From assembly GCA_001790095.1 (NCBI GenBank), contig MGBH01000001.1:900001-932000 (forward strand): DNA of 32,000 bases. Direction: 5' to 3'. A model generated the notes under the pieces. The model saw nothing but the letters and a program-made list of their open reading frames with translations. It was not told the origin of the DNA and made no database searches. Position 1 is the stretch's first letter, and every line of letters begins with the position of its first letter. The translations under genes were made by a program, and so were the position numbers. This DNA comes from Candidatus Saccharimonadota bacterium. Its GTDB lineage: Bacteria; Patescibacteriota; Microgenomatia; UBA1406; GWC2-37-13. Of this stretch, positions 5,588 to 28,564 are shown in pieces.

Positions 5588-8500
5588 TTATTTTTCTTCA
5601 GGAGAAACTTCAATAATAACACGACCATCTCCTCCCTCTGGCAACGCTTCCTGTGTTTTTGGATTTGGCGTATTACCAACCAATTGAGCGATGTTTTGTG
5701 CTGCTTCTACACCTCTCGTTTCTGCAATCAAAGCTTGAGGAGTAGGAGGTGTCAACACTACACCAGGCAATCCAACTGAGGCAAAATGGGCACGATAATC
5801 ATCTAGAAGAGTAACAAAAGGACTCTCAGAATCAGATAGTGTTTTTATCCATTCCCCATATTCTCGTAAAAACTTTATCATTGCATCAGGTCTCGTAAGG
5901 ATTGACTTCAGATAATCAAGCATAAGCGTAGGCAATCTATCTTCAAGTTGTTTTAGCGTATTCTTTGCAGCTGTCAAATATGCTTGTCTTGTCCCTTTAA
6001 ATAATCCCCATTCTGCTTCCATCTGTGTAAGAAGGTCCGTTTGATTTGTGGTTGCAAGTTCAATTACTTTTTTATCGTAAGCTGCTTGAAGTACGGCTGT
6101 CTGGTTTATCATCGCCGCTTCTTGTCTGAACATACCTGTTCTTGCCTCTCTTAATATTTTTTCTCTTTCTGCCTCGTCAGTGAGAGCAGCAGCAACCAAA
6201 TCCAAAGCAGCTATCCGAAGTTTATTAATCCCCGCGGTTAATTCAACATCACCTGTCTCTTTAAGCATACCTGCAAGCAGTTCTCTTACATTGGCCCGAT
6301 CAGCAAATGCTGCTTGGAGTGTACCTCTTACAGCATCTGCGGTAACCGCTTGATTTTGACTTCTTTGCGCTGCCATATAAGATGCTACCGTCAAAAACTC
6401 TAGTGCTTGGTTTGCCCTATCTCCTCCGATAGCTATTCCTACATTACCTCCCCCAACCCCCCCACCCTCACCTGTAGGAAGAGGAGGTGTTTGATCTTGT
6501 TGTAATAATAATTGTAATTCTTGACCGATAACTCCTAAAATCTGACCAAAATCCACTTGCCCACTTCCCAACTTTTCAACAAGAGAAGCGGCTAAGGAAA
6601 GACCTGAACTGTTAGGAGCTGCAGAAACCGTTTCTGATGTAAATCCTGAGGCTGTCTCTTCATGTGCCTCTATATTTGTGTCCTTTCGTAATTTTTCATA
6701 TCTTTGATTTGCTTCTGCAACCAGCTGTGCTGTTAAAGCAGGAGCTCCTTCAATGCTTTTGATTAATCCAGTTGTTGGATCAATCTCTATTCCTGTAGCC
6801 ATTCTTCCTCTCACCATATTGATGACTTGAGATAATTGATCTGCCACAGTCAAAGCAGCTTGTGCGATCTGGCTCGTTACTGCTTCTGATTGTGCTATTA
6901 AACCGGTCGGGTCCATAGGTGGTCTCATATCCTTATGGGTAGTTGCATAGATTAATAGATCATCTTGACCCAATCGTCTTAGAGTTGGTATAAGTCTTAC
7001 CCTTGCAGCTTCTGCTGGACAACTACCTTCAACTGCATCAAGAGTAACATCTCCAAACTGCTTTATAAATGCAACAGCTGAATGCAGAAAAGATCTCCCT
7101 AATGTTCCATCTTTCAGTGATAGATGTCCTGCATCATCAACCACCAATAGGGACTTTGGGGGTTTAATTAAACCTGTTTCAACAGGTATAAGTTCGTATC
7201 CGTTTTCTCCTTTTCGATATATTTCAACTTGATCATGTACTGCAGTTCCGATAGGTGATCTTCTAGCCATACCTCCAATTGCAGCATAACGCTCAAGTAA
7301 ATCTAAGGTTGCCCCAAGAACTATACGAGCTTGTGCTTCACGATATGGCGGTTTTGCACCACCCTCTATGGCTGTGTTTGCTTTCAAAGCAGTTGCACGA
7401 GCAATCCCTAACCATGTAGTCCCATCATCAATCTTCCAATGAGCACCTGTATTTTCTCTTAGTTTTTGAACTAACATGTCATACATAAGAGTCAATGATT
7501 CATTGCTATAATTTCCCGCCCATTGATGTAATACTTCAAGCGCAGCACGTCGGACCATAGGATTAAATGTTCTGCCTTGTGTATCAAGCAATATATCAGT
7601 TAAATCGTCAAAAAATAGTTGTCTTGTTTCCTCTTTTACTGGATCAAAAGTTCCTTCTCTCGTTGCATAGAGAGCTCCATTCATAAGTAGCTGAGTAGCA
7701 AGACGTGCCTGCATTTTCGCATTTAACAACCCTGTGCTTTCTTGCTCTGTCAATGTGACTGGTGGTTTTGCTCTAAGTTTTGCAAGAGCATCCTGCCATA
7801 GTGGATAATCTAATGATCGGTTCAAAGCAGAAGCTCGCAGTTGATCATGAAACAATCCATACATTGTTCGTAATAACCCTGCGGCTACTTCATGACCTTC
7901 AGGTGAGTTTTTAAGATCTGGATCTGAGAGCCATGACATACGTTGATTTGGATCTCTAAGAACTACTGCAATATCACCGGTATGCCTGAACAGTGTTTCA
8001 AAACCTCCACCTCTTGCTTTTGGATTACTTGCAGACATATCATCTGCCAAATCAAGTATTGCTAATATGTCACCATCCCATGCTCTTTGAAGTTCTTTAT
8101 TCAAAGGAATAGTACCAGTACGCTCATAATATGCATATGCTTTTTGCGCTTGAGTCCATTCCGAATGTTCGGCAATTTCTCTTTGAGCCTGTAAACGGAC
8201 TTCACGTTTTCCTTTTCTTGCGTCTTTTGCAATTCTTCCTGCAACAAGTGGGGATGCTATTTCAAAAACAGCAAGTGGATCAGCCATCATATAAAATGAC
8301 TCTACTTCCATCCATGCTGAGTCTAGCCCGCTACGCATGATTCTATAAGCATTTTCAATCGAAGCAACTGTAGCTTCAACCAACACATTCCATTTCTCAG
8401 CTTGAACCGGCGTACCAGCTGCATGAGTTAAGGTCTCAAACCGTGCAAGAGCAAGCAGCATAACAAATAAAGCTTGCTCTTCTGGAGGTTTTTTATTTTT

Positions 8501-11284
8501 TGTTTCAATATATGGAAGCATTCTCTTAAATATTTCAGGATTTAGCCTTGCAGCTCGTATCACCTGTTCTGTTACTATTTCACCGATTGTTTTTGTCGCT
8601 TTGGCACCTTGCCCCGAAGCTTCTCTTGCATCAAGCGCAATAGCGATAGGTGAATTAATGACATCATGAATCACTTGATATGTAAGTCTCATTTGAAGAT
8701 CTAGATTGGTTGTTTTAACCATCATGTCAAAAGCATTCTGTACTTCAGCCTCAAGAAATGCAAGTGATGATTCTGAGTCCATAAGAGCAATTCTTTGAGC
8801 TAAAGCATCTCGTTGTCTTTGCAAATATCCGTCCAAATCAATTACTCCACCAGCTCTATATCTAGGCGCATCAAGTAATCTCATATGTTCACTCCAAAAT
8901 CCATTACTTCTCTCAACTGCTTGATCAGGCTGACCAACTATTTGTAAAGCTATTTGGCTGAACGCTTCTGTCAACTGCTCTGTAGCTGTCAACACTGCTA
9001 CCAATCTTTTCCCATGACCTTCGGTTAATTTACCTGGCATATCATCGCCAGTTACTACTCGTTGAGTATTTATCACAATATACATCTGCTGTGCCGGCTC
9101 AAAAGTTTGAGCTAAGCTTAGTAAACGTCTTTGTTCTTCAGCAAGAACATCATTAATCCTTTGATATTCTGTTCCTATTCCATAAGTTCTATCAAACAAA
9201 GCATCTACCAATCCTTGAGGGTATGCCACAGTAGTACCAACTGTGCGGAAATATTCATTGGCACCAACTGTTAATGCACCATTTTTTACTACAAGAGCAT
9301 CAAGGTCATCAATCATTCCAGTATGTGGCATTATGCGTACCCCTCCCAAATATGTATCTTTTCCAAGAGCATATGTATCTTTTAAGGCAGGAAGATTCTG
9401 TGTTCTGCCTAATACATTAAGGGCTTCTTGAACAATCCTTTGATCAGCTTTATACAATCCATTTTGTTCTGTACCTTTTGCTAAGCCATAAAACGGATTT
9501 CCAGAACAATCAACAAGTCGTTGCCACATTTCACGTATTGGTCCTTGTCTAAGGGCCATTTCAGCTTGATTTTGTATTTGCTCTTTTTGTCTTTGATCAT
9601 TTCCCTTATATAGCTTTAAAGCATCTGCACGAGCTTGTTCGATATTAGTGTTTAACTCAGCATTTCCATTTTCATAATGTACGGTTATGTCTTGTGCCAA
9701 ACCTTCAGCAAGTCTTGGAAGTCTTTTTTCAGTGGTTGCTTCGTTGTACATACGAATCAACTGTCCTTGTGTTGCTAGATCCTGTACTTGGGTAATTGCT
9801 GGTTTAATTTGTTGAAGAGCCTGATACACATGAAGTTGTGCATAAGGATCAAAGGGAGCTGCCGCTTCGGCAAGCGCATTCAGATCTCTTACGATTTCAT
9901 CTTGTACACAAGCTCCTGGTTGATTTGGATGTACTGGATATCCAAGAGCACCATATATTGGATTTCGCATTTGAGCAACCAACTCAGCTACTCGCCGTTG
10001 TGGATCTGCAAGATAAACTTGTTGATTTAAATAATCTCTTCCTGCTCTAAGTCCATCACGGTTCAAATCTTGAAGCAATGTCACCAAATCTCGAACTGGA
10101 TATCTTTCAAGTGCTCCTTGAGTATGATTTACTGTTGGCAAAGTAGTATTTGCACCAAAGACGATCTCATTCCCTCCTAATAAAACTTCTTTACCAGCAC
10201 TGATAAATGCTGCTTGTGTAGGAGCATCAAAAGTGCCAAGATTTACAACAGTTTCAGCAATTTCTCTTCTTGCTGCTTCAATTGCAGCCATACTTCCTCC
10301 AGGTAAGCCAGACAAAGGATGAGTAACGTGCTCTATCTGTTCGTTCCAGAAAGCTAATGCAACCGAACGTAATGCATCATAGGTTGCCCTATGCGCATCA
10401 ACACTATTAGTTTGTGCTTGTGCTTCTGTTAAGCTTACTCCTCTTAAAGCTTGGCTTAAAGCATTTTCTCGTTGTTCTAAAATTCGAACAGAAAAATTAT
10501 GAGCTCCTACTTCAAAAGTCTGTTTTGTTCCGGCTATCATTTCAGCTACAATAGCCCTTGCTTTTATACGTTTTCCAGACTTTGATGTGACTCGTGCATT
10601 TGTTTCATTAAGCAGTGTCAATAAATTGCCACCGACAGCAGCGCGTGCATCACCCTCTAATTCATTAACCGCTTGAGACGCAAGAAATGCATCATACTCT
10701 ACTTGAACGGGAGATTTATCCACATCGTCATATCCTTCTGGAATGATAAGTGGATGCGTCCCATCAGGTCCCATCTTCGTATGAGTTATTAATGAAGCTG
10801 CACGAGGAATGATTAAACCACTTTTTGTTGCTACATCTGCTGGAATACCTTGCTGTAGTAATTCAACTTCTTGTAAAAATCTTCTTTCCCAACCATGTTC
10901 AATATGTGGATTTGAAAGCAGTTCCGCGTATAACTCTTTAATTCTAGCTCTTACTACAGGCTCTCCTGTATTTGCATAAATATCTTGAAGGACTCGCTCT
11001 CCATATGTGATAAAAGGAACAACATTATCTCCTGGTTCACTTGCTAATCCTTGCATTCCAATTACGGGTACCTGCACAACACCTCTTGATTTATCAAAAT
11101 AGCGACTCGTAACACCAAGTGTAGAATTATCCAAACTATAAAGTGGATCCCAGTAAGATGCAGGGTTTGTAACCGGCCCTCTTAATAATGTTCCTACTCT
11201 TTTTTGAATGGGAATTGTAAACGCTGGTTCAAATCTTCTTAACCCTAAAAATCCTGCTCCCTTTCGTTCAGTAATTTTACTCAT
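5588..11284 (-). CDS. Giant hypothetical protein, 1,898 aa, predicted cytoplasmic, with no domain recognised
   Basis: An uninterrupted 5.7-kb ORF with an ATG start. I could find no signal peptide, hydrophobic segment of 20 aa or more, Walker A or HExxH. The sequence is rich in A/L/Q/G/T/R and poor in Lys, with a Gly-rich hinge PTGEGGGVGGGNVGIAIGG. Confidence 0.85.
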   Translation of the reverse strand: MSKITERKGAGFLGLRRFEPAFTIPIQKRVGTLLRGPVTNPASYWDPLYSLDNSTLGVTSRYFDKSRGVVQVPVIGMQGLASEPGDNVVPFITYGERVLQDIYANTGEPVVRARIKELYAELLSNPHIEHGWERRFLQEVELLQQGIPADVATKSGLIIPRAASLITHTKMGPDGTHPLIIPEGYDDVDKSPVQVEYDAFLASQAVNELEGDARAAVGGNLLTLLNETNARVTSKSGKRIKARAIVAEMIAGTKQTFEVGAHNFSVRILEQRENALSQALRGVSLTEAQAQTNSVDAHRATYDALRSVALAFWNEQIEHVTHPLSGLPGGSMAAIEAARREIAETVVNLGTFDAPTQAAFISAGKEVLLGGNEIVFGANTTLPTVNHTQGALERYPVRDLVTLLQDLNRDGLRAGRDYLNQQVYLADPQRRVAELVAQMRNPIYGALGYPVHPNQPGACVQDEIVRDLNALAEAAAPFDPYAQLHVYQALQQIKPAITQVQDLATQGQLIRMYNEATTEKRLPRLAEGLAQDITVHYENGNAELNTNIEQARADALKLYKGNDQRQKEQIQNQAEMALRQGPIREMWQRLVDCSGNPFYGLAKGTEQNGLYKADQRIVQEALNVLGRTQNLPALKDTYALGKDTYLGGVRIMPHTGMIDDLDALVVKNGALTVGANEYFRTVGTTVAYPQGLVDALFDRTYGIGTEYQRINDVLAEEQRRLLSLAQTFEPAQQMYIVINTQRVVTGDDMPGKLTEGHGKRLVAVLTATEQLTEAFSQIALQIVGQPDQAVERSNGFWSEHMRLLDAPRYRAGGVIDLDGYLQRQRDALAQRIALMDSESSLAFLEAEVQNAFDMMVKTTNLDLQMRLTYQVIHDVINSPIAIALDAREASGQGAKATKTIGEIVTEQVIRAARLNPEIFKRMLPYIETKNKKPPEEQALFVMLLALARFETLTHAAGTPVQAEKWNVLVEATVASIENAYRIMRSGLDSAWMEVESFYMMADPLAVFEIASPLVAGRIAKDARKGKREVRLQAQREIAEHSEWTQAQKAYAYYERTGTIPLNKELQRAWDGDILAILDLADDMSASNPKARGGGFETLFRHTGDIAVVLRDPNQRMSWLSDPDLKNSPEGHEVAAGLLRTMYGLFHDQLRASALNRSLDYPLWQDALAKLRAKPPVTLTEQESTGLLNAKMQARLATQLLMNGALYATREGTFDPVKEETRQLFFDDLTDILLDTQGRTFNPMVRRAALEVLHQWAGNYSNESLTLMYDMLVQKLRENTGAHWKIDDGTTWLGIARATALKANTAIEGGAKPPYREAQARIVLGATLDLLERYAAIGGMARRSPIGTAVHDQVEIYRKGENGYELIPVETGLIKPPKSLLVVDDAGHLSLKDGTLGRSFLHSAVAFIKQFGDVTLDAVEGSCPAEAARVRLIPTLRRLGQDDLLIYATTHKDMRPPMDPTGLIAQSEAVTSQIAQAALTVADQLSQVINMVRGRMATGIEIDPTTGLIKSIEGAPALTAQLVAEANQRYEKLRKDTNIEAHEETASGFTSETVSAAPNSSGLSLAASLVEKLGSGQVDFGQILGVIGQELQLLLQQDQTPPLPTGEGGGVGGGNVGIAIGGDRANQALEFLTVASYMAAQRSQNQAVTADAVRGTLQAAFADRANVRELLAGMLKETGDVELTAGINKLRIAALDLVAAALTDEAEREKILREARTGMFRQEAAMINQTAVLQAAYDKKVIELATTNQTDLLTQMEAEWGLFKGTRQAYLTAAKNTLKQLEDRLPTLMLDYLKSILTRPDAMIKFLREYGEWIKTLSDSESPFVTLLDDYRAHFASVGLPGVVLTPPTPQALIAETRGVEAAQNIAQLVGNTPNPKTQEALPEGGDGRVIIEVSPEEK

Positions 11285-11291
11285 AGTATGT

Positions 11292-11320
11292 ATTATAACA
11301 AATAACTATAGTATTTTCAA
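11292..11320 (-). promoter_or_regulatory. Consensus sigma70-type promoter of the giant gene, leaderless layout
   Basis: The minus strand reads TTGAAA(11315-11320)-17 nt-TGtTATAAT(11292-11297)-acatact-ATG. The spacer contains the 8-bp palindrome ACTATAGT. Confidence 0.5.
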
Positions 11321-11404
11321 CTTTTACTATAGACTATTAAACTAAGTTATATATTAATTAATAATAAAAAATTTAAATATATATAATATACTTATAATAA
11401 ATTA

Positions 11405-14191
11405 TTAGAGGAATGACAATACTTCTAATAATCGCTCTCTTGTAAATCTGGGATATGTTATTCCATCAATTTGAAATAGTATTACGTTTTCTGGATTAAG
11501 TAATAGATGTATACATTCTCGCAATCTCCTTTTATTCATTTCTTGTTTTACAGATAGCGATCCTCTTACCTTACCACTATCCATAAAACGATCAACGTCT
11601 GTATGTATTTTTTCCAGGACTTGAACCATAGTCTGAATCACTAGGCCTTTGTGAGCTTCAGTATCTTTTGTTCTTAACATATTAATAAGTATAGTTAGAC
11701 TTTCTGCATAATCCAGCTTGATTGACTTTTTTCTCTCTTTTCCTTTTGTTGCTCTACGAATTTTTTGTTCGGGTACATGTTGAAATGCTGGATTGACAAG
11801 AGCTAAAGCTTTTGAAAGCCGTACTTTATTACCGAACGTACTACCATATTCTTTTTTTTGCCCTGGAGTTAGATGTTTTGAGTTCAATCCTTCTCTTATT
11901 CTTAACAATTTATCTGGTGGTATATGACCAACTTGTAACTCATCTATCGCTGCTTTTAATTTTGGTGGATACTCCTTTTTCTGCTTCCTTTCATAGATAG
12001 CTACACCAAGAGCAGTTGCCACAGTAGTATTAAAAAGTCCAAGTCCAATGATACCAACTTCAGCAGATACTTCGACAACCTTTTGTAATAATGGATCAAC
12101 ATCTGGAGCTTGAGCTTCGGCTACAAATTGTGCCGGATGCCCTGCATCATCATACATAGTTAGAGTAATCGTCGCTTTATTTTCCAACCATGGCGTATCG
12201 CACGTAACCGTTGACTGACTTCTATCTTGTGCTACTGAAGCTAGGTGACAAATCACCTGATCATTATTTCCTGTGATATCTTTAGTTTGTGTGCGAATCC
12301 ATAGTAATATCTCTGAAAGCGGCTGACCAAATATGTGGGTATCTTGCCAGGGAGCAGGTTGAGAACCCTGAGATTGTGTTATATCCAATGCAAGATTATG
12401 TTGAGGATCAGGATGAATAAGAAGTATATTTATCGTACGTCCGCCATGATCGTTTGGCTGCTGAGAAACGACCTGGACTGTTACTCCGGCAAATGGAGAG
12501 TACCCTGGTTCAAGGACGCTTAACTGCTCACTACAGTTACCCAATATTCCACACGCCTGTACAAAACTTGTTCTTCCTGTATCTCCTGGTTCAGGCCTAT
12601 CGGTAAACAAAGCAACACCCAACTCATTTACTCCTGAAGATTCTGCTTGATTATCTACTGTTCGTGTTACTGAACATGGATCGCCAACAGGAGTCTCCGC
12701 ACAAGTTGCATCAAGTACTCTCGTGGCATCTTGTATTGCTACATGTATGGCCGTTAGGGTAGGTGGAGGAAGAGATCTCATAAATGCTTCAAATGCAGTG
12801 TTTTGACCTGAGAACTGTACCTCACCCGCTACTCTTCCATCTGGGTCACTTATGGAAATCGGTATGATGGCCATATGAGTATCTGCACCTATTGAAATAC
12901 GAGTTCCATCTTCCAATACGATGTCCCCCATCCCATTACATAAAACTGGAAAATTAACTGTATTTGAGGCAGCGTCAAACTGTGCTCCGTCTGCACCTTC
13001 TCCTTGTAGACAGGTAGTAGGAAGCGCTGCGGTTGTTTCTCCTGAATTTTCATTTCCATGATTATCTATTGTGGTAAATCCTCGGGTCCGAATTGATCCA
13101 TCGATGGGTAATATAGCGGTGCCGTCTTCTATTACTACTCTATCTCCTCCGTCTGTAGGTATTATCCTCCCCTGTCCATCACAAGTAAGCGCAGCGGCAC
13201 CTTCACCCACAATGCCTGTTTGAATACAAATTGTTTCCTTGGTATCAACTTCTCCTGTTATCAAAGCAGCATCTCGAGCTCCTTCATCACATCCTCCTTG
13301 TCCATCTAGTGGCGCCATTGAAACAGTTAAAGCAATGGGTCCTTCTTGACCATCTACCGGTATGATATCTAGGCCAAGCCCTCCATCATCCAGTGTCACC
13401 TCTGCGCTTTGTACTGGAGATAAAACACCTTCTATTGTTGCGCATGCAGGAGACATTTCGTTACTACGGTTCCCATCAAGAACAACACGAGTTGGATCAA
13501 CTATCGTCTCCCCAAGAGCAACATCATCAATCTGAGGTGGTTCGGGTGGCATGGGAACATCAACAGATATTTGTACTAATCCATCAGGAGAAGGCTCACC
13601 ACAGATCGGTTCTCCTTGGCTTGACGCATTTAAACAATTTTCTGCGTTAACCTGTAGGGTCCCTGACCCTACTATTCCTAAATCAAAACATTGTTCACCA
13701 GGAGCTTGATCAGGTAAAGCCACTTGAACAAGTGAGATAACAGCGCCATCCATAGTAACACCACTGACTTGAGGTATTATGTCTGGGTTCGGAAGCTTTA
13801 TCCCTAAACTATTTGCAACAGCTGAAACACCAAGCAAGTGTGCGGTTTCATCTGTTTGAGATAAACCCACACAAACTTGTACAGGTGATCCTAATGGCAG
13901 ATTGCCACTTGAAGGAAAAAACCTAACATCAGGCGATCCTAATTCGCTTTGAATTGCAGCAACTTGCTCTGCACTTAAGTTTAAATCTTCTAAATCTGTA
14001 GTAGATTCTACAGCTGGGGCAGAACCATTACAAGCAGTGGTAGTTAGTGCTAACGCTGTTCCTGAGACAATGAATTGCACAGGTCCTTTTGACGGAAGAT
14101 GACCCTGACCACCACCCACTTTTACACCTTCACCAGATACATCGGTTGGGGGGTTCATTTTAGCAGAATGTCTTATGTGGAGCTCTCCCAT
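11405..14191 (-). CDS. Membrane-anchored Cys-rich surface protein (about 928 aa): lipoprotein-like signal, large ectodomain, one TM helix and a basic cytoplasmic tail
   Basis: The N-terminus reads ..SKGPVQFIVSGTALALTTTAC (lipobox-like). I count 17 Cys between track residues 66 and 676. The TM helix VGIIGLGLFNTTVATALGVAIY (11993-12061) is followed by ERKQKKEY... and a K/R-rich tail of about 195 aa. The ATG at 14189-14191 is preferred over the track's TTG at 14227, which coincides with a -35 box. Confidence 0.8.
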   Translation of the reverse strand: MGELHIRHSAKMNPPTDVSGEGVKVGGGQGHLPSKGPVQFIVSGTALALTTTACNGSAPAVESTTDLEDLNLSAEQVAAIQSELGSPDVRFFPSSGNLPLGSPVQVCVGLSQTDETAHLLGVSAVANSLGIKLPNPDIIPQVSGVTMDGAVISLVQVALPDQAPGEQCFDLGIVGSGTLQVNAENCLNASSQGEPICGEPSPDGLVQISVDVPMPPEPPQIDDVALGETIVDPTRVVLDGNRSNEMSPACATIEGVLSPVQSAEVTLDDGGLGLDIIPVDGQEGPIALTVSMAPLDGQGGCDEGARDAALITGEVDTKETICIQTGIVGEGAAALTCDGQGRIIPTDGGDRVVIEDGTAILPIDGSIRTRGFTTIDNHGNENSGETTAALPTTCLQGEGADGAQFDAASNTVNFPVLCNGMGDIVLEDGTRISIGADTHMAIIPISISDPDGRVAGEVQFSGQNTAFEAFMRSLPPPTLTAIHVAIQDATRVLDATCAETPVGDPCSVTRTVDNQAESSGVNELGVALFTDRPEPGDTGRTSFVQACGILGNCSEQLSVLEPGYSPFAGVTVQVVSQQPNDHGGRTINILLIHPDPQHNLALDITQSQGSQPAPWQDTHIFGQPLSEILLWIRTQTKDITGNNDQVICHLASVAQDRSQSTVTCDTPWLENKATITLTMYDDAGHPAQFVAEAQAPDVDPLLQKVVEVSAEVGIIGLGLFNTTVATALGVAIYERKQKKEYPPKLKAAIDELQVGHIPPDKLLRIREGLNSKHLTPGQKKEYGSTFGNKVRLSKALALVNPAFQHVPEQKIRRATKGKERKKSIKLDYAESLTILINMLRTKDTEAHKGLVIQTMVQVLEKIHTDVDRFMDSGKVRGSLSVKQEMNKRRLRECIHLLLNPENVILFQIDGITYPRFTRERLLEVLSFL

Positions 14192-14198
14192 GGGGTGT

Positions 14199-14227
14199 AT
14201 TATACCAAAAACTATAGGAACTTTCAA
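14199..14227 (-). promoter_or_regulatory. Consensus sigma70-type promoter of the 928-aa gene, leaderless layout
   Basis: The minus strand reads TTGAAA(14222-14227)-17 nt-TGgTATAAT(14199-14204)-acacccc-ATG(14191). The spacer contains CTATAG. Confidence 0.5.
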
Positions 14228-14295
14228 TCTATACTAAATATGTATATATTATAAAGAAAGTACCTTGTCTTGAGATCGTTTATATCGCAATTTAT

Positions 14296-16842
14296 TTATT
14301 GCATCTTTTCAACTTTCTTTACCAACTTTATACCTATAAAAGATAAAGAAGAGATAAAAACAAATATGACGTAGGTCGTTGGTGAGACGGCTGATATTTT
14401 AAACCATTTTGCAATGGACGGCGTGATAACGATGAAAAACTGAGTCAGAAATGGAAAAGAAAACGCAACCAAAAATACAGGAGTAAGAAGATGCGATAGG
14501 TTCGTATGAAGTGAACGATGGCTTAACCATAGGTCAATAAGGATAAAAGACTGCATAAGAGTCAACACTGAAAAAGCGGCCGCATCAGCGATCCCGTCGG
14601 TCGTAAATCTAAGAAAAACTAAGAAGCTGATCAAGATAAGCAAAGCACCTATAATGCCTAAATATAGGATATATTTACGTTCGTGTGGTTTTAACAAAGT
14701 CATTGATCTGTCAGGTTTTTCACTCATGAGATGAGGGTTGCGCGGGGAAAAACCAAGAGATAGGGCTGGTATACCATCTGTCACCAGGTTGATATAAAGA
14801 AGTTGGATAGGAAAGAAAATATGGTTGAACCCTAAAAGCAACCCTCCAATAAGAGCTATTGCTTCTGTAATATTGCATGAAAGGAGATATTTTATGGCGT
14901 TTTTAAGATTCTTGATGATGTTTCTTCCCTCTTCTATCGCGTTGATTATGGATGCAAAGTTATCATCGGTTATGACCATATCTGCGGTCTCTCGAGCTAC
15001 ATCAGTTCCAACCAGTCCCATCGCAACCCCAACATCTGCCTGTTTGAGCGCTATTGCGTCATTCACACCGTCTCCCGTAACCGCCACTATCTCCCCTAAT
15101 TCTTGATATAGTTTGACGATACGATGTTTGTGGAATGGAGAGGTACGTGCAAATATTTTTACTCGAGGAAGTATTTTTAATAGTTCCTTATCAGAATAAT
15201 TTTCGACTTGCTGTCCGGTCAAAATCTCTCCCCCCTCTTCAATGATGCCAGCAACCACTCCAACTGCCTCTGCTGTTTTCTCATTATCGCCGGTGATCAT
15301 AACCACATTTATTCCTGCATTTTTCGCTCTTGCAACGGCTTCATTCACCTCAGGTCGAGGAGCATCATGGATCGCGACCAGACCTAAGAAAGTCAGGTCA
15401 GTTGAAATCAGCTGAGATCGGCTAGGATCGGTTTTTGTTTGGGCTGATTTCAACTGTTTATAACTAAAAGCAAGCACTCTCAACCCTTTTTTTGCCCACT
15501 TCTCCATCTGATCTTCTATTTTCTTTCTTTCTTCAAGAGTTAATGGTTCTGCCTTGTTTCCTTTTTGTATCGTATTTGATATCTCAAGTATCGATTCTGG
15601 CGCCCCTTTGGAAAAAAGAAGCTTTTCTTTCTGATGACTAACAACAACACTCATCCTTTTTGTCACACTATCAAAAGGGTTTTCGTCTATCGTCACCCAT
15701 TTTTTTCGTACCTCCTCTGTCTGTATCCCTACTTCATGTGCAAGATAAAGAAGCGCTCCTTCAGTCGGATCACCAAGCACGTCATATCTACCATGATCAT
15801 GGACATAAACAAGCGAAGCAGTAGAACAAACAATACCGTTTTGCACCAGCAAAGAGAATGGATGATTTTCCAAACGAGGGAGGTTGTGTATCTCATATAG
15901 TTTGTCATCAACGAACAATTCTGAGACCTTCATCTTATTGGTAGTAAGAGTCCCTGTCTTATCTGTTGCAACAAGAGTAACGCTTCCGAGAGCCTCAATC
16001 GCAGATAATTTGCGAACGATTGATTTGCGCCGCGACATCTCCTTTACGCCAAGAGACAAAGTTATAGTCATAACAGCCGGAAGTCCCTCCGGTACGACAG
16101 CAACCGCAAGAGAGATGGCGAGAAGAAATGCTGGAAAATATCCCGATCCTCTGAAAAATGAAATGATGAATACAAAGATAGCAGCTCCAATACCAATAAG
16201 ACCAATAAGACGTGTAAGATCTTCCAGTTTTTTTTGCAGGGGTGTTTTACTGTCATCTATGACTGATAGATCTTGAGCAATCTTTCCGAATTTTGTTTCC
16301 ATGCCGGTTTTGTTTATCTGAAAGAATCCTCTTCCCTTTGAGACAATCGTCCCTGAAAAAACCTCCTCGTCTTTGCTTTTGGGAACCGGCAATGACTCAC
16401 CGGTCAAAACAGATTCATTAAGTTCTAGATTCATCCCTTCAATGATCACGCCATCTGCCGGAATTTTCACTCCTTCCTCGATAAAACAAACATCTCCACG
16501 TACAAGAAATTTACTTTCTATCTCCGTTTGGATACCATCGCGTATAACTCGTATCTTGGTAATGGTGATTTTTTTCAATGCTTCAATCGCTCCCTCAGCT
16601 TTTGCTTCTTGATACAGACCAAATAATGCATTGAGTATGACGATTGAGACAATAAGGACTCCATCTATAACCTCACCGATGAGCAAAGAAAATAGTGCCG
16701 CCACTATGAGAAGAATTGTTAAGAAGTTGGTAAACTGTGAAAAAAATTTCACCAGTAAACTTTTCTTTTTTTGTTCTGATATGGTATTTAGACCATGTTT
16801 TTTAAGTAGTTCTTCTGCCTGGAGAGTAGTTAAGCCCTTCAT
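14296..16842 (-). CDS. Cation-transporting P-type ATPase, P2 (Ca2+-ATPase-like) type
   Basis: Motifs TGES, PEGLP (TM4), DKTGTLT, TGDN and GDGVNDAIALKQADVG are present. There are about 10 hydrophobic segments over 848 aa. Confidence 0.9.
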   Translation of the reverse strand: MKGLTTLQAEELLKKHGLNTISEQKKKSLLVKFFSQFTNFLTILLIVAALFSLLIGEVIDGVLIVSIVILNALFGLYQEAKAEGAIEALKKITITKIRVIRDGIQTEIESKFLVRGDVCFIEEGVKIPADGVIIEGMNLELNESVLTGESLPVPKSKDEEVFSGTIVSKGRGFFQINKTGMETKFGKIAQDLSVIDDSKTPLQKKLEDLTRLIGLIGIGAAIFVFIISFFRGSGYFPAFLLAISLAVAVVPEGLPAVMTITLSLGVKEMSRRKSIVRKLSAIEALGSVTLVATDKTGTLTTNKMKVSELFVDDKLYEIHNLPRLENHPFSLLVQNGIVCSTASLVYVHDHGRYDVLGDPTEGALLYLAHEVGIQTEEVRKKWVTIDENPFDSVTKRMSVVVSHQKEKLLFSKGAPESILEISNTIQKGNKAEPLTLEERKKIEDQMEKWAKKGLRVLAFSYKQLKSAQTKTDPSRSQLISTDLTFLGLVAIHDAPRPEVNEAVARAKNAGINVVMITGDNEKTAEAVGVVAGIIEEGGEILTGQQVENYSDKELLKILPRVKIFARTSPFHKHRIVKLYQELGEIVAVTGDGVNDAIALKQADVGVAMGLVGTDVARETADMVITDDNFASIINAIEEGRNIIKNLKNAIKYLLSCNITEAIALIGGLLLGFNHIFFPIQLLYINLVTDGIPALSLGFSPRNPHLMSEKPDRSMTLLKPHERKYILYLGIIGALLILISFLVFLRFTTDGIADAAAFSVLTLMQSFILIDLWLSHRSLHTNLSHLLTPVFLVAFSFPFLTQFFIVITPSIAKWFKISAVSPTTYVIFVFISSLSFIGIKLVKKVEKMQ

Positions 16843-16859: not shown

Positions 16860-17378
16860 TTAATTATATTGCATGAGCCTGTTTTTTACTCTCATCAGTT
16901 TTAACTCATTGTAAGCTTCCCTCATCGTCTCAAGGATCTCCTCTATAGTCTGCTCTGCCGCTCTGAAAGAAACTGCTTTTAGATTGTGGGGGAAATAATG
17001 AAAGATTTCGTTGCGTCCAAGTTTCCATGTTTGCCAGATCCGTTTTGCAAGCGCTTCACTGCCGCACTCTGAGACTTTTCTATATAAAGATCTCTCTCCA
17101 AGTCGGATTTCAAGATGAGGTGAAAGCAGTTTACCAAGACGCAGATGATCTGAAATATAGTCTAGATGTGATATAAATTTCACATCTTTGAAAAGCTGTT
17201 TGAGAAATCCTTCATATGTCTTTGCAAAAGGAAAAATAAGAAATGAGTAGTCTTTAAAATGAAAAGCATGATCGCGAATAATGTCTTGTGTAAGATACTG
17301 CCCTTCCAAAACTAAGTCTTTTTGCGTCTGTGAAAAATAGTTCCAAAGCGGTTCTTGCTGTAAAATATGTTTGTCCAT
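16860..17378 (-). CDS. Hypothetical protein with a HEPN-like RNxxxH motif (about 172 aa)
   Basis: WKLGRNEIFHYFPH (RNEIFH at 16998-17015) lies in the C-terminal half of a small, apparently helical protein. The start was moved to the ATG at 17376-17378, which removes the overlap with the divergent gene and places TGcTATATT 5 nt upstream. Confidence 0.4.
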   Translation of the reverse strand: MDKHILQQEPLWNYFSQTQKDLVLEGQYLTQDIIRDHAFHFKDYSFLIFPFAKTYEGFLKQLFKDVKFISHLDYISDHLRLGKLLSPHLEIRLGERSLYRKVSECGSEALAKRIWQTWKLGRNEIFHYFPHNLKAVSFRAAEQTIEEILETMREAYNELKLMRVKNRLMQYN

Positions 17379-17383
17379 ACTTA

Positions 17384-17409
17384 AATATAGCATAAATCGC
17401 TGTATACTA
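17384..17409. promoter_or_regulatory. Back-to-back divergent extended -10 elements
   Basis: The minus strand reads TGcTATATT-taagt-ATG(17378). The plus strand reads TGtATACTA-tctatc-ATG(17416). Confidence 0.35.
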
Positions 17410-17415
17410 TCTATC

Positions 17416-18984
17416 ATGAACCGTACTAAGGAGTTTGTCATCATCCTTATCCTTATAGCTTTCATCACCTACCTTCCCTCCCTTTTTGGCAACTTTGTAT
17501 GGGATGATGAAGATGTACTTTATGAAAATTCATATGTCAAAGATCTAAGAATTGATACATTTTTTACCAAAAACGCATTGGCTGGGAGGGGAAAAACTTC
17601 CAATTATTATCGCCCTATCCAGCTTCTTTTCCATAGTCTTATCTATCAAGGATTTGGTCTTCAATCATGGGCCTTTCATCTTACATCCATCCTGATGCAT
17701 ATAATAACAGGAATAATAGTGTTTATATTTTTGTGCTACATTCTGCAGGATGAAGTAGTTCCACTACTTACCGCTCTTTTTTTCCTTATTCACCCTATCC
17801 AGACTGAGGCTGTAAGTTATATTGCAGGCATAAACGATCCTCTGTATGTATCGTTTATGATGCTTGCGCTTCTTGTCTTTTTTATTCACAAAAATATCAA
17901 ACAAGCCATGTTTTGTATACTGTTTTTTTGCCTTGCACTGCTTTCTAAAGAACTTGCTGTGGTCGCAATCGGCATCATCTTTATACATGAGGTTTTATTT
18001 CACCGTTCTTTTGCCACAAAAAAATACGTTCTTTTTGCAATCATTGCAGGTATTGGAACCCTTTATATCATCGCTCGTCTAACCGTACTCCAGTTTTCCG
18101 ATATTTCCCTTTATTGGAGAGAAAGTGTCTATGGGACAAGTCTTTTCGTACGTTTGGCTACTTTTTTCCGCATCTTTTTTATTACGTTGGGTCTTTTTAT
18201 ATTTCCTAGAGAACTTCATTTGGAACGCGACTTCACAACGCCTATTCTAACCAACATCCTCAACCCATGGACGCTTTTTTTCGTTTTATTAAATGCAGGC
18301 ATTATCATCGGTGTCATTAAGTTCATGTCAACTGATATTCAAAGACGAAACACTGCTCTATTTTTGTGGTTTTCATTTCTCATATCGCTTCTTCCTTTTT
18401 CCGGCGTCATCCTTCTTAACGGGATCTTTTATGAGCATTATCTTTATCAGGCTTTGATATGGTTTTTTGCCTTTGTTTTATATTGTGTAAAACCCCTGTT
18501 AAAGCATAAAATAAGCATACTAATCATTACGATAGTTGTAATACTTTTTGTAATACGCTCCTATATCCGCCAATATGAATGGATCGATAATATACGTCTG
18601 TACAAACATACACTTACCTTTGCCCCCAAAAGCATACGGGTACTTAATAATCTAGGGTTTGAACTGGCCAATGTTGGAGCTCTCGATGAAGCAATTGGAA
18701 TCTACGGCAAAGCTATAAAGATTGATGATACAAAACCACAGATATATCATAATCTTGCCAATATCTTTGTTACAAAAAAGCAGTATGAAAAAGCGGAAAG
18801 CTATTTTCTCAAGGCTATCCAAATAGATCCTAATTTTTATTACTCTTACTATGCGTTACTAAATATGTATATGCAGACAAATAATAATAAAAAGGCAATT
18901 GCACTACTTGAAAAAGAGATGTTGCCTCGATATCCAAACGATGATGCATTGCGACAAATCTATAATAAACTTGGAGATAAATAA
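17416..18984 (+). CDS. TMTC-like polytopic membrane glycosyltransferase (GT-C/PMT-like) with C-terminal TPR repeats
   Basis: The N-terminal motif is FVWDDEDVLYENSYV. There are about 10 hydrophobic helices, then TPR-like repeats (..AIGIYGKAIKIDD..YHNLANIF..AESYFLKAIQIDPN..). The start is set at ATG 17416 (MNRTKEF..). Confidence 0.65.
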   Translation: MNRTKEFVIILILIAFITYLPSLFGNFVWDDEDVLYENSYVKDLRIDTFFTKNALAGRGKTSNYYRPIQLLFHSLIYQGFGLQSWAFHLTSILMHIITGIIVFIFLCYILQDEVVPLLTALFFLIHPIQTEAVSYIAGINDPLYVSFMMLALLVFFIHKNIKQAMFCILFFCLALLSKELAVVAIGIIFIHEVLFHRSFATKKYVLFAIIAGIGTLYIIARLTVLQFSDISLYWRESVYGTSLFVRLATFFRIFFITLGLFIFPRELHLERDFTTPILTNILNPWTLFFVLLNAGIIIGVIKFMSTDIQRRNTALFLWFSFLISLLPFSGVILLNGIFYEHYLYQALIWFFAFVLYCVKPLLKHKISILIITIVVILFVIRSYIRQYEWIDNIRLYKHTLTFAPKSIRVLNNLGFELANVGALDEAIGIYGKAIKIDDTKPQIYHNLANIFVTKKQYEKAESYFLKAIQIDPNFYYSYYALLNMYMQTNNNKKAIALLEKEMLPRYPNDDALRQIYNKLGDK

Positions 18985-19746: not shown

Positions 19747-19770
19747 TAATCCTATAGTATATGGTATAAT
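19743..19770 (+). promoter_or_regulatory. Promoter of the Fic-like gene, leaderless layout
   Basis: TTGATA-16 nt (contains CTATAG, 19752-19757)-TGgTATAAT(19765-19770)-taagga-ATG(19777). Confidence 0.45.
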
Positions 19771-26271: not shown

Positions 26272-26952
26272 ATGCTTCTTAGTGAAAATGATCATATGGA
26301 TGGATTTATATCGTCTCTCTTGCCATTTTTTCGCAGGTTTTTCGTGGAATCACTTCTCTTGGGAGCGGCTTTTATCATCACTTTTATATCTATCACTATA
26401 TATATACATACTACTCAAAAGGAGGAGGATGTTGAGATACCTCCTCTCTATAAATCTTCTACTTCCGAGGAACAGAAAAAAAGTATCATGATAGACGTAT
26501 CAGGAGCAGTGAATAAGGAAGGGGTGTTTGAGCTGTCTCAAGGAGCAAGACTTAAAGACGCACTTGACCTTGCAAAAGGCATATCAAACGATGCAGATAA
26601 GGGTTTTTTTAACCGTAACTTTAACCTTGCTAGATATGTATTGGACCAAGAAAAAATATACGTCCCCTCGCTCCAAGAGACTGAAACAGGTATAATATCC
26701 GAACGCAAACAATTAGTAGATTATTTACTGCCTCAGACTATCCCATTAACTCAAATAGACGAATCTCCTCAAGAGAGAATCAAGATCAACTCAGCCTCAA
26801 GTGAGGAAATAGACACACTTCCCGGTATCGGCCAATCAACCGCTGAAAAGATTATTCAAAATAGACCATTCACCACAATCGATGAGCTTTTGACGAAGAA
26901 AATTCTTAAGAAAAACGTGTTTGAACAGGTTAAAGAATTGGTGGATCTATGA
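26272..26952 (+). CDS. comEA: Competence protein ComEA (membrane-anchored SLBB plus helix-hairpin-helix DNA receptor)
   Basis: An N-terminal TM helix is followed by VSGAVNKEGVFEL (SLBB-like) and the C-terminal INSASSEEIDTLPGIGQSTAEKII HhH motif. Confidence 0.8.
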   Translation: MLLSENDHMDGFISSLLPFFRRFFVESLLLGAAFIITFISITIYIHTTQKEEDVEIPPLYKSSTSEEQKKSIMIDVSGAVNKEGVFELSQGARLKDALDLAKGISNDADKGFFNRNFNLARYVLDQEKIYVPSLQETETGIISERKQLVDYLLPQTIPLTQIDESPQERIKINSASSEEIDTLPGIGQSTAEKIIQNRPFTTIDELLTKKILKKNVFEQVKELVDL

Positions 26953-27728
26953 ACATAACCCCTTCTATCTTCACCTCTGTTATCAACTCATATCTTCCTG
27001 AGCCCCACGCATCACTTCTCAATGGCATTTTGTTTGGTATTCCTTTAAGATCGACCAAGATCTTGTATCAACAGCTTCAGGTCGTTGGACTATTACATCT
27101 TGTTGTTTTATCTGGCATGAACATCACTATCTTAGGGGCTATCGTCGGACTTGCTACAAACAAGTTGCCAAAAAATCTTAGTCTTTTTTGTACTATTGGC
27201 TGCATTGTGGCTTTTTCTTTTTTTGTTGGACCCCAACCTCCTATCGTGCGAGCGGCTGTTATGGGCACTCTCTCTACCATAAGCATTATCTACGGCAAAA
27301 GAAATACCGCTCTTGTGAGCCTCCTTTGTGCTGTTTTGGTCATTGCTATATTTAAAAAAGACTGGCTTTCGGGTATATCATGCCAACTATCAGTAGGCGC
27401 TACATTTGGCATAATCCTTTTTGGTAAAGGAAGGGGGGGTAATGCAGTTATTCAAGATCTTCGCACTTCACTTGCGGCACAGATCTTTACCGCTCCGCTT
27501 ATCTTTATTTTTTTCAAACAAATTTCCCTTATCTCTCCCCTTTCCAATCTTGCAGTCTCCTTTCTTATTCCACCTCTTATGATATTTGGTTTTCTCACCG
27601 CGATCCTAGGGAACATACATTGGCTTTTGGGCTTACCCTTAAGCTATATATGTTACGGATTATTAAGCTATATGATATTTGCCATTAAGATACTGTCAAA
27701 AGTCCCTTTTGCATTCGTACAGTTTTAA
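26949..27728 (+). CDS. comEC: ComEC/Rec2 competence (membrane channel) domain protein: N-terminal piece of a split ComEC
   Basis: A polytopic 259-aa protein with ..LLNGILFG.., LQVVGLLHLVVLSGMNI and ..FKQISLISPLSNL.., typical of the Competence domain. An ATGA overlap joins it to comEA. Confidence 0.75.
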   Translation: MNITPSIFTSVINSYLPEPHASLLNGILFGIPLRSTKILYQQLQVVGLLHLVVLSGMNITILGAIVGLATNKLPKNLSLFCTIGCIVAFSFFVGPQPPIVRAAVMGTLSTISIIYGKRNTALVSLLCAVLVIAIFKKDWLSGISCQLSVGATFGIILFGKGRGGNAVIQDLRTSLAAQIFTAPLIFIFFKQISLISPLSNLAVSFLIPPLMIFGFLTAILGNIHWLLGLPLSYICYGLLSYMIFAIKILSKVPFAFVQF

Positions 27729-27730
27729 CG

Positions 27731-28564
27731 ATGCAAAACCCCATCACCAAAAAAACACTTTTTTTTGCTTTACTATTTTCATGCATAATACTTGTAATTG
27801 TTTTTTGTAATCAGTACTTTAGTAAGCAAACCATACTAGTGTTTTGCGACGTTGGACAAGGGGATGGCACCTATATGCGTATACAAAACAAGATTGATAT
27901 TGTTATTGACGCAGGTCCAGCAAATAATAAAATGCTGCACTGTTTAGGTACCTATATGCCCTTTTACGACAGAACCATTGAGTATGCATTCATCTCACAT
28001 TCACAAACAGACCATTATGGGGGATTTATTGAGATATATAAAAGATATAAGATAGATGCACTGTTTGCTCTTCCTCTAACTGGTAGCAGTAACAATATTG
28101 AGATTCTTAAACAGTTGATAAATAACCATCAAACCCATCATATTATCCCAACTACAGGTGATACTGTCTCCCTATTAAACACCCGCCTCACTTTTTTATC
28201 TTCTTCCAAGGCGTTGCCTTCCATCATATATGCCAAAGACCTCAATGCGTTTTCAGTCATCGTTGAGATTAGGACCTCAGACAAGCGTATCTTATTTACC
28301 GGAGATGCAACGATCTCCACGCTATATAATCTCTCTCTTTCTCCCTACAGTGGTAAAACAATACTTAAAGTGCCCCATCATGGATCACAAAACAGTATTT
28401 CGGAATCCTTTTTAAAGCAAATTCATCCTGACGTTGCGATCATAAGCGTTGGGAAAAATAATTCTTATGGGCACCCATCGAAAAGAGTATTAGATTTCTT
28501 AAAAAAAATGGGGACTCAAACACGACGGACGGATAAGGAAGGCGACATTGTTATAAAGTTATAA
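27731..28564 (+). CDS. comEC: ComEC C-terminal metallo-beta-lactamase domain protein: second piece of a split ComEC
   Basis: One N-terminal TM helix, then DVGQGDG, HSQTDHYGG (HxHxDH-type), FTGD and VPHHGS. The ATG lies 2 nt after the preceding stop. Confidence 0.8.
   Translation: MQNPITKKTLFFALLFSCIILVIVFCNQYFSKQTILVFCDVGQGDGTYMRIQNKIDIVIDAGPANNKMLHCLGTYMPFYDRTIEYAFISHSQTDHYGGFIEIYKRYKIDALFALPLTGSSNNIEILKQLINNHQTHHIIPTTGDTVSLLNTRLTFLSSSKALPSIIYAKDLNAFSVIVEIRTSDKRILFTGDATISTLYNLSLSPYSGKTILKVPHHGSQNSISESFLKQIHPDVAIISVGKNNSYGHPSKRVLDFLKKMGTQTRRTDKEGDIVIKL

Follow-up and report, generated by a model that had tools for sequence, protein, structure and literature searches.

Among the connector-adhesin pairs available for comparison are catenin-cadherin, talin-integrin, GAC-MIC2 and, in Mycoplasma, the HMW proteins with P1. 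HMW1 and HMW2, encoded in a reduced genome and restricted to their lineage, are helical, Cys-poor cytoplasmic proteins of ~1,800 amino acids (aa) that position the membrane adhesin P1. Bacteria of the Candidate Phyla Radiation (CPR) have genomes of ~1 Mb, in which lineage-specific hypothetical giant proteins are common, and to our knowledge how these bacteria attach to or depend on other cells is largely unknown. Giant CPR surface proteins, e.g. those of Vampirococcus, have been predicted to reside in the membrane or at the surface and to carry WD40, TPR, PKD and similar domains (PMC8080830). Here, we describe a giant gene in a stretch of 32,000 nucleotides (nt) of contig MGBH01000001.1 (positions 900,001 to 932,000, assembly GCA_001790095.1; hereafter the window), which encodes a protein of 1,898 aa and is preceded by a gene for a predicted surface protein, its partner. 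Our preferred reading, which we hold tentatively and with somewhat less than even confidence, is that the giant protein is a scaffold or connector at the inner face of the membrane for this partner.

The source organism is a CPR member (Microgenomates) from Rifle groundwater, and NCBI and UniRef list the protein, for Candidatus Roizmanbacteria bacterium RIFOXYD1_FULL_38_12 and its sibling bins, as a 'hypothetical protein' (among others OGK62827.1). The identical protein is found on 22 contigs from several samples, including NCBI GCA_001790045.1 (MGBF01000001.1). An exhaustive HMMER scan with aa 1-1200 as the query against 1.84 billion cluster representatives (cut-off E < 1e-3) gave 12 matches, consisting of its own cluster (P0001; P and L numbers are our labels for family proteins and loci) and 11 relatives, ten of them 1,400-1,980 aa long and one a 564-aa fragment (P0011). 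P0002 (1,883 aa) matched with 34% identity and E 9e-163, P0003 has 1,870 aa, and P0004, from Candidatus Roizmanbacteria bacterium CG_4_10_14_0_8_um_filter_39_9, has 1,826 aa and is truncated by the contig end. While the closer relatives keep the length of the protein (1,826-1,979 aa), eight distant ones (seven of 1,400-1,979 aa and the fragment) match chiefly at aa ~790-1110, and all the named relatives are Roizmanbacteria or Microgenomates (CPR). Judging from these comparisons, the giant family is genuine and full-length, and its distribution is extremely narrow.

The window gene and P0002 align collinearly over 1,892 aa with 32.5% identity, and P0002 (locus L007), P0005 (L011) and P0010 (L013, 'Microgenomates group bacterium') share the chromosomal slot of the window gene, the order in all four loci being P-type ATPase, unknown membrane protein, giant gene and transketolase. 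Between the window and L007 the identities are 93% for NusG, 88% for L11, 78% for a cytidylate-kinase-like protein, 72% for the ATPase, 71% for L1, 50% for transketolase and 45% for a TPR/PMT_2 protein, but 32.5% for the giant protein and 24% for the membrane protein. The fact that the last two values are the lowest in the block implies that the giant gene and the gene upstream of it diverge fastest, with length and order kept; the gene downstream of the giant gene varies between loci. P0017, the nearest variant of the window protein, has 2 aa changed and is too close for an estimate, and at the next relative, of 33% identity, dS is saturated; the ratio dN/dS (omega) therefore comes from P0010 and P0023, which are 91.4% identical in aa. 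By the Nei-Gojobori method this pair has a dS of 1.16, a dN of 0.049 and an omega of 0.042, with values of 0.026-0.054 in all six 330-codon windows, the linker and C-terminus included, and in the same comparison the upstream membrane gene has an omega of 0.114. The giant gene is functional and under strong purifying selection.

The initial annotation, made from the letters of the window alone, had already taken the open reading frame (ORF) to be real and functional, and had proposed a dN/dS comparison and a search for decayed relatives as ways to find out whether it was a relic. The collinear full-length orthologues and the omega of the homologue pair bear the claim out, and the decayed relatives came down to two isolated cases of split genes. 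In one of them, on a contig of the same strain, the giant gene is interrupted by one frameshift and identical apart from that (P0015 and P0019); the other is L011, a contig from the Joint Genome Institute (JGI), where the membrane gene (7428..9898) is divided into 681 + 137 aa and the giant gene (10001..14687) into 1450 + 113 aa, the small split ORFs holding the conserved tail motifs. The splits in L011 may be assembly indels or (parallel) local decay. These two cases, together with an atypical GC content at the third codon position (GC3) of 0.22 and weak BFVD matches (E >= 1e-3, TM <= 0.09) among tail and tape-measure proteins, could be taken to indicate that the ORF is spurious or a relic, or that it is a recent acquisition from a mobile element or phage, e.g. 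a tape-measure-like gene. Such an origin is almost certainly wrong and is effectively refuted by the family scan, the collinear alignment and omega: an omega of ~0.04 along the full length of P0010/P0023 rules out a relic, the closer relatives have conserved their length, the gene keeps its chromosomal position between P-type ATPase and transketolase, the identical protein recurs on contigs from several samples, and the phage, plasmid, IMG/VR and PHROG searches were all empty, with no phage genes nearby. On the same grounds we rejected a pseudogene (omega 0.04) and a phage tape-measure or other giant virion protein (no phage match, chromosomal synteny).

The giant protein is rich in A (11.8%), L (11.2%), Q (6.1%), E (6.9%) and R (6.4%), has 3 Cys in its 1,898 aa and is acidic, with a net charge of -41. 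It contains neither a transmembrane segment nor a signal peptide (the Kyte-Doolittle mean over 19 residues reaches a maximum of 1.43), sequence scans found no hydrophobic N-terminus, LPxTG or RTX nonapeptide motif in it, and Walker A, HExxH, GxSxG and CxxC each occur 0 times. Pfam, NCBIfam and PHROGs gave no match; at E <= 0.01 Pfam found no domain in seven family members scanned, and at E <= 1 in all 12 members the one HEAT/ARM-type match was HEAT_2, E 0.59, in one member. Sequence searches of PDB, with the single sequence and with a profile, gave nothing beyond noise from low-complexity helices (designed helical bundles, a lectin neck). The word-indexed homologue search reached no further than the protein's own cluster, whether started from the full protein or from the family alignment, and in the latter case it missed the alignment's own members too. 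Degenerate-pattern scans of GTDB representative genomes, JGI metagenomes and IMG/VR were empty when the single protein served as the query, while the pattern from a four-sequence alignment found only the already known Roizmanbacteria contig in the genomes and nothing in the metagenomes. In the phage and plasmid collections tblastn left the giant protein unmatched, and in the giant-gene region there was no match in Rfam and no DNA tandem repeat by Tandem Repeats Finder. The initial annotation had seen no recognisable domain, secretion signal or transmembrane segment and none of the Walker A, HExxH, GxSxG or Cys-cluster motifs, all of which agrees with the libraries, the hydropathy and the motif scan, and no segment matched a known family. 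Among the candidates tried, a megasynthase of the non-ribosomal peptide or polyketide type was rejected (no Pfam or NCBIfam match), as were a polymorphic or large effector toxin (the C-terminal ~70 aa are conserved, there is no toxin domain and the downstream gene is not conserved) and anti-phage defence, where PADLOC gave as its sole match DrmD at E 0.011 over 80 aa, which is noise, with no other DISARM genes.

Since it lacks a transmembrane segment and a signal peptide, and has 3 Cys as against 18 in the partner, the giant protein is probably cytoplasmic. It is improbable, though worth weighing, that it is instead exported non-classically, e.g. through recognition of its conserved C-terminal motif, and serves on or at a host cell as a surface fibre or translocated effector; the membrane protein encoded next to it would then be its exporter, receptor or anchor. 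Giant proteins of CPR bacteria are in general assumed to have a part in host attachment (PMC8080830), and this one is acidic, Cys-poor and elongated, carries a conserved C-terminal motif of ~60 aa and a Gly-rich stretch, diverges fast compared with its housekeeping neighbours and is encoded next to a surface-protein gene. Nevertheless, none of the export or anchoring signals named above is present, the 32-kb window has no secretion-system genes, and the giant CPR surface proteins of the literature have transmembrane segments and adhesion domains, neither of which this protein has. Moreover, a uniform omega of 0.04 would be atypical for a host-exposed protein; the exposed partner has 0.11 and a much lower identity. 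CPR bacteria are also thought to have no outer membrane and hence no classical type I secretion system. A substrate of that system of the RTX kind was rejected for want of nonapeptide repeats and because the cell is monoderm, and a repetitive secreted adhesin because there is no sorting signal, no GGxGxD/RTX, only 1.7% strand and no tandem repeats.

AlphaFold2 models were built on family alignments of 10-12 sequences, and gave a mean predicted local distance difference test score (pLDDT) of 71.5 and a predicted template modelling score (pTM) of 0.57 for aa 1-830, and 67.9 and 0.60 for aa 800-1898. Combined, they have 68% helix, 1.7% strand and more than 80 helices, in keeping with the initial annotation, which had called the protein largely alpha-helical and rich in A, L, Q, E and R. 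In Foldseek searches of PDB the top matches were all HEAT/ARM solenoids (Kap121p, importin-beta, transportin, CAND1, beta-catenin, SF3B1 and TRRAP), with best E values of 4e-4 for the N-terminal and 1e-3 for the C-terminal model and probabilities up to 0.99; no other fold class was returned, and the HEAT/ARM scaffold matches span E 4e-4 to 1e-2. Because the TM-scores were just 0.1-0.2, 'solenoid' here is the name of a fold class and not a statement of homology. BFVD gave nothing significant in the fold search (E >= 1e-3, TM <= 0.14). The modelled protein would thus be almost entirely helical and of the alpha-solenoid class, and it agrees with the HEAT/ARM type at the level of fold class only, since no HEAT, HEAT_2 or Arm profile of the Pfam clan matched at threshold. 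The fold class is therefore one already known, but the defining sequence features of HEAT/ARM or of another family are absent, and the structure prediction and Foldseek search that the initial annotation had called for yielded weak solenoid matches and no family assignment. The same annotation had placed a single Gly-rich hinge between a large N-terminal and a C-terminal region; the hinge does lie inside a probably flexible linker (pLDDT < 45), but it is not the sole main boundary, since the protein has several parts (Table 1).

The best-conserved region of the family is the all-alpha core in the middle of the protein, with the motifs SPIA..L..RE.xGxGxKxTxT(I/L), IET, ASIEN, RK, FYA.Y..GK.P, PG, FN, VR.MA.EV and PYWS.E. 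D862, S878, A881, T899, I926, E977, P1003, A1196, L1199, K1217, L1228 and A1248 are invariant, and R887, E888, E993, E1262 and R1315 nearly so. This pattern could suggest an unrecognised enzyme or ligand-binding machine, in which the solenoid arms would only position substrates for a core that is itself a novel domain for catalysis or nucleotide/ligand binding: conservation is far higher in the core than in the arms, the core has invariant or nearly invariant polar residues and a conserved loop rich in Gly, Lys and Thr (RE.xGxGxKxTxT), and the pLDDT of that loop is below that of the confident helices on either side. We consider such a role quite unlikely, however, as no enzyme family was matched in Pfam, NCBIfam, PDB sequence profiles or Foldseek, metal-binding and nucleophile motifs are absent, and in the AlphaFold2 model of the all-alpha core the loop connects two helices with no strand before it, unlike a P-loop nucleoside triphosphatase. 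The P-loop candidate itself, suggested by the GxGxKxTxT part of the loop, was rejected on this position between two helices and the lack of Walker A.

The family alignment also reveals a recurring signature, W..y....l.(N/D)P.YG.GG..d(l/v)s ... QAAF..G, and the N-terminal ~830 aa of the giant protein consist of ~7 degenerate modules with this W..NPxYGxGG signature. In the window protein the signature sites lie near aa 45 (YWDPL..LG), 172 (MGPDG), 326, 445 (NPIYGALG), 600 (NPFYGLAKG), 702 (RTYGIG) and 812, all spaced 102-155 aa apart. A hidden Markov model (HMM) built from the last copy alone (window aa 785-850 and the aligned columns) recognised copies in P0012 (4.4e-10 and 4.8e-5), P0007 (3.6e-7), P0009 (7.5e-5) and P0004 (6.8e-4). 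In the window protein the internal copy best preserved (Table 1) reached 1.8e-14 after iteration of the HMM, which is a self-trained value, and self-BLAST showed a marginal internal similarity between aa 216-375 and 504-652 (E 0.007, one-sequence database). The last repeat is kept in 11 of the 12 family members, the fragment P0011 having just its final ~20 residues, and the copy number varies among the relatives, P0004 having ~270 extra N-terminal residues. The protein had been described as non-repetitive, which is right by eye for this sequence alone but not at the level of the family, where the degenerate repeats are detected with E down to 4e-10. Neither the repeat unit with its signature nor the core has a description in the libraries and literature searched; the literature on 'Roizmanbacteria' and 'giant' does not describe the family, and no paper came up under the assembly accession.

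The gene directly upstream is orthologous to the one that precedes the giant gene at the other loci. Its product begins with a short, basic stretch, followed by a lipobox-like signal (LALTTTAC); next come an ectodomain with abundant Cys, Gly and Asp, which holds most of the protein's 18 Cys, one transmembrane helix at aa ~714-732 and a basic cytoplasmic tail of ~200 aa. A membrane gene stands directly upstream of the giant gene in seven of the nine members examined (L007, L009, L010, L011, L013, L015 and L016), and this pairing spans at least three different wider contexts, with toxin-antitoxin genes upstream in L010 and unrelated genes in L015. The partners share the lipobox-ectodomain-transmembrane-tail layout, and most share a conserved cytoplasmic tail domain (SWFW...YPHLTRE...FNP); the window partner aligns with its L007 orthologue through the transmembrane helix into the tail. 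Both genes also have in common the promoter TTGAAA-N2/3-(C/A)CTATAGT-N6/7-TATAAT, which is kept across loci whose proteins are 20-33% identical. As judged from gene order and promoter, the giant gene is genetically coupled to a putative surface-exposed single-pass protein. Promoters of this class are found in the window at 11282..11320 (-), 14189..14227 (-) and 19751..19770 (+), the last before a Fic-like ORF of 555 aa, and upstream of the giant and partner genes in L007, L009, L010, L013, L015 and L016; the conserved element could serve a shared regulator as its operator, or could be the strong-promoter consensus of the lineage.

It can be hypothesized that the two genes stand together by historical synteny and that the giant protein is a general cytoskeletal or organising scaffold (for shape, division or the nucleoid) independent of its neighbour. 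Two distant family members have no partner, the long C-terminal helices suggest self-assembly, and bacteria with reduced genomes, such as Mycoplasma, use giant helical cytoskeletal proteins. A role of this kind seems unlikely, however, in view of a pair that persists in three wider gene contexts with a conserved promoter element common to both genes, and of a family confined to 12 clusters among 1.84 billion representatives, a narrowness that speaks against a core housekeeping function.

If the giant protein is a connector for the partner, as we prefer to read it, the partner's cytoplasmic tail would dock onto either the surface of the solenoid or the conserved core, oligomerisation would fall to the long C-terminal helices and the linker would provide reach. 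A fast-evolving cell-surface protein, in contact with a host or with particles, would thereby be coupled to the cell interior. In its boldest form, which we regard as doubtful, the pair would be a two-component, envelope-spanning attachment module specific to a Roizmanbacteria clade, made up of a rapidly diversifying ectodomain in contact with the host or substrate and a tail-binding, self-assembling cytoplasmic connector with an undescribed helical repeat of ~130 aa (W..NPxYGxGG). Such a module would, by analogy, be the bacterial counterpart of adhesin connectors of the catenin, talin or GAC type. What characterises a connector is tail binding, for which the evidence here is genomic coupling only, i.e. 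adjacency and a shared promoter, and these could reflect co-expression of two proteins without contact. Several further points weigh against the connector. The invariant polar residues of the core (D862, S878, T899, E977, K1217) together with the RE.xGxGxKxTxT loop could equally be a catalytic or ligand site, the protein may be exported non-classically, and the TM-scores of the solenoid matches are low. The most distant members examined, L014 and L017, are without such a neighbour, and the tail HMM, trained on the other loci, misses the diverged tail of the window partner. In addition, the last ~700 aa of the giant protein were covered by the word-indexed search and the domain libraries only.

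The giant gene has its own promoter, the -35 box of which, TTGAAA, matches five of the six positions of the TTGACA consensus; the initial annotation had called the promoter perfect, and it is indeed strong, but near-perfect. Since it has this promoter and a hairpin right after the stop codon, the gene is predicted to be monocistronic, a separate transcription unit with a strong promoter, and terminator-like hairpins are also found 3' of the giant orthologues in L007, L009, L013 and L016. The ATG lies 7 nt downstream of the -10 box without a Shine-Dalgarno sequence, which is why the giant mRNA is probably leaderless. Most genes across the window have a -10-like box (TATAAT, TACACT, TATACT) ending 6-8 nt before the ATG, and 0 genes in the window have a Shine-Dalgarno sequence, which suggests that leaderless mRNAs are the default in the Roizmanbacteria genome studied; the 7-nt spacing is thus the usual start style of the genome and not special to the giant gene. 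At the orthologous loci the giant gene has a leader of 9-25 nt, likewise without a Shine-Dalgarno sequence. The GC3 values of the giant gene (0.22) and the partner gene (0.24) are the lowest in the window, the other genes having 0.29-0.38, and their GC contents at the first codon position (0.58-0.59) are the highest; the low GC3, like the fast divergence, is a trait common to the pair and counts in favour of the pairing. The two genes thus encode proteins rich in Ala, Gly and Arg on strongly AT-biased codons, for which expression level, mutation bias and gene origin are candidate causes.

Table 1. Coordinates of the giant gene, its parts, its partner and other genes of interest in the window
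Feature	Position	Strand	Basis or remark
Giant gene, 1,898 aa, ATG to TAA	5588..11284	-	intact ORF
Giant-gene promoter TTGAAA-17-TATAAT, TG-extended -10, conserved spacer element ACTATAGT	11292..11320	-	11/12 match
Intrinsic terminator hairpin, 14-bp stem and T-run, right after stop codon	5533..5567	-	
Basic N-terminal segment, aa 1-35, low-confidence/disordered, not hydrophobic	11180..11284	-	pLDDT 24-28
Predicted N-terminal alpha-solenoid, aa 36-789, ~38 helices, degenerate modules spaced 100-155 aa	8918..11179	-	AlphaFold2 and family HMM
Best-preserved internal repeat, aa 308-364 (FWNEQ...PLSGLPGG...QAAFISAG)	10193..10363	-	last-repeat HMM E 0.39
Last repeat, aa 790-848 (FWSEH..LDAPRYRAGG..D...SLAFLEAEV), leads into core	8741..8917	-	
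Conserved all-alpha core, aa 820-1330	7295..8827	-	family alignment; AlphaFold2 pLDDT 75-95
Mixed helical segment, aa 1331-1554, short strands ~aa 1352-1395 and 1499-1511, lower confidence	6623..7294	-	AlphaFold2
Low-confidence, probably flexible linker, aa 1555-1696	6197..6622	-	pLDDT 27-48
Gly-rich hinge PTGEGGGVGGGNVGIAIGG, aa 1603-1621, inside linker, 277 aa after	6422..6478	-	
Predicted C-terminal domain, very long helices (42 and 69 residues), coiled-coil-like, aa 1697-1870	5675..6196	-	AlphaFold2
Family-conserved tail motif (S/D)xPxG...Y....GL....P.P..L...G, aa ~1815-1870	5675..5842	-	
Partner gene, 928 aa from ATG at 14191	11405..14191	-	
Partner promoter TTGAAA-N2-CCTATAGT-N6-TATAAT-N7-ATG	14199..14227	-	architecture as giant gene's
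Gene downstream of giant gene, 633 aa	3583..5484	-	RYGGDEF at aa ~196, degenerate RYGGTF at aa ~461
Fic-like gene, 555 aa	19777..21444	+	degenerate Fic motif HPALDGNGTIAK replacing HxFx(D/E)GNGRxxR
ComEC as two adjacent ORFs, beside ComEA	26949..28564	+	Competence 259 aa, metallo-beta-lactamase 277 aa
Listed ORFs overlapping at 5' ends	16860..17468 / 17371..18984	- / +	called genes 172 aa and 522 aa, divergent

The window around the two genes holds NusG-L11-L1, ComEA, the split ComEC, the P-type ATPase, transketolase and the TPR/PMT_2 (mannosyltransferase-like) protein, a set of neighbours in keeping with the CPR identity of the source. The 633-aa protein, with two GGDEF-like modules, has sub-threshold GGDEF matches only (Pfam E 3e-4), and in L013 a homologue of it adjoins transketolase; it could be a diguanylate cyclase or nucleotide cyclase of divergent sequence. 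The Fic-like protein has weak matches to the PADLOC candidate PDC-S04 (6e-8) and to Pfam Fic (0.004), and is missing from the syntenic L007. The divergent genes of 172 and 522 aa share a short common intergenic region with two back-to-back -10-like boxes, and the 172-aa protein has faint sub-threshold RnlA/HEPN-like matches only.

The giant gene fills ~0.5% of a CPR genome of ~1 Mb, is under strong purifying selection and falls outside every described family; with this selection signal and a conserved pairing, its role becomes a testable hypothesis. If the coupling is physical, the pair would represent a new type of surface-to-cytoplasm connector in ultra-small bacteria and a concrete pair of proteins for tests of host attachment. 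If it is not, the giant protein would be one more lineage-specific hypothetical protein, now with a defined architecture and family. The repeat adds a new type to the alpha-solenoid class.

Like the giant surface proteins of CPR bacteria, the protein described here is encoded by one of the largest genes of a ~1.2-Mb genome and is linked to a cell-surface gene; unlike them, it has no transmembrane segment, signal peptide or known domain. HMW1 and HMW2 show no sequence similarity to it in any search, and while HMW2 is mainly a continuous coiled coil, the giant protein is predicted to be mainly a solenoid and coiled-coil-like at its C-terminus only. Its proposed role resembles that of GAC (giant ARM-repeat connector), talin and the catenins, in which a helical cytoplasmic protein engages the tail of a single-pass surface protein. 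This likeness is pure analogy, with no homology, actin system, PH or FERM domain, the GAC structure (8c4a) being a weak Foldseek match at rank 50 with E 0.15. Among the HEAT/ARM scaffolds, karyopherin-beta, CAND1 and beta-catenin are likewise all-alpha stacks of hairpins over more than 1,000 residues, with repeats barely visible in the sequence, but their units measure 40-50 aa, as against the 100-155 aa of the W..NPxYGxGG units. The giant protein also differs from them in being bacterial and confined to one CPR lineage, and in its extra 500-aa core and C-terminal long-helix domain. Should the analogy with HEAT/ARM scaffolds hold, the role to be expected of the giant protein would be the binding of partners or tails along an extended surface.

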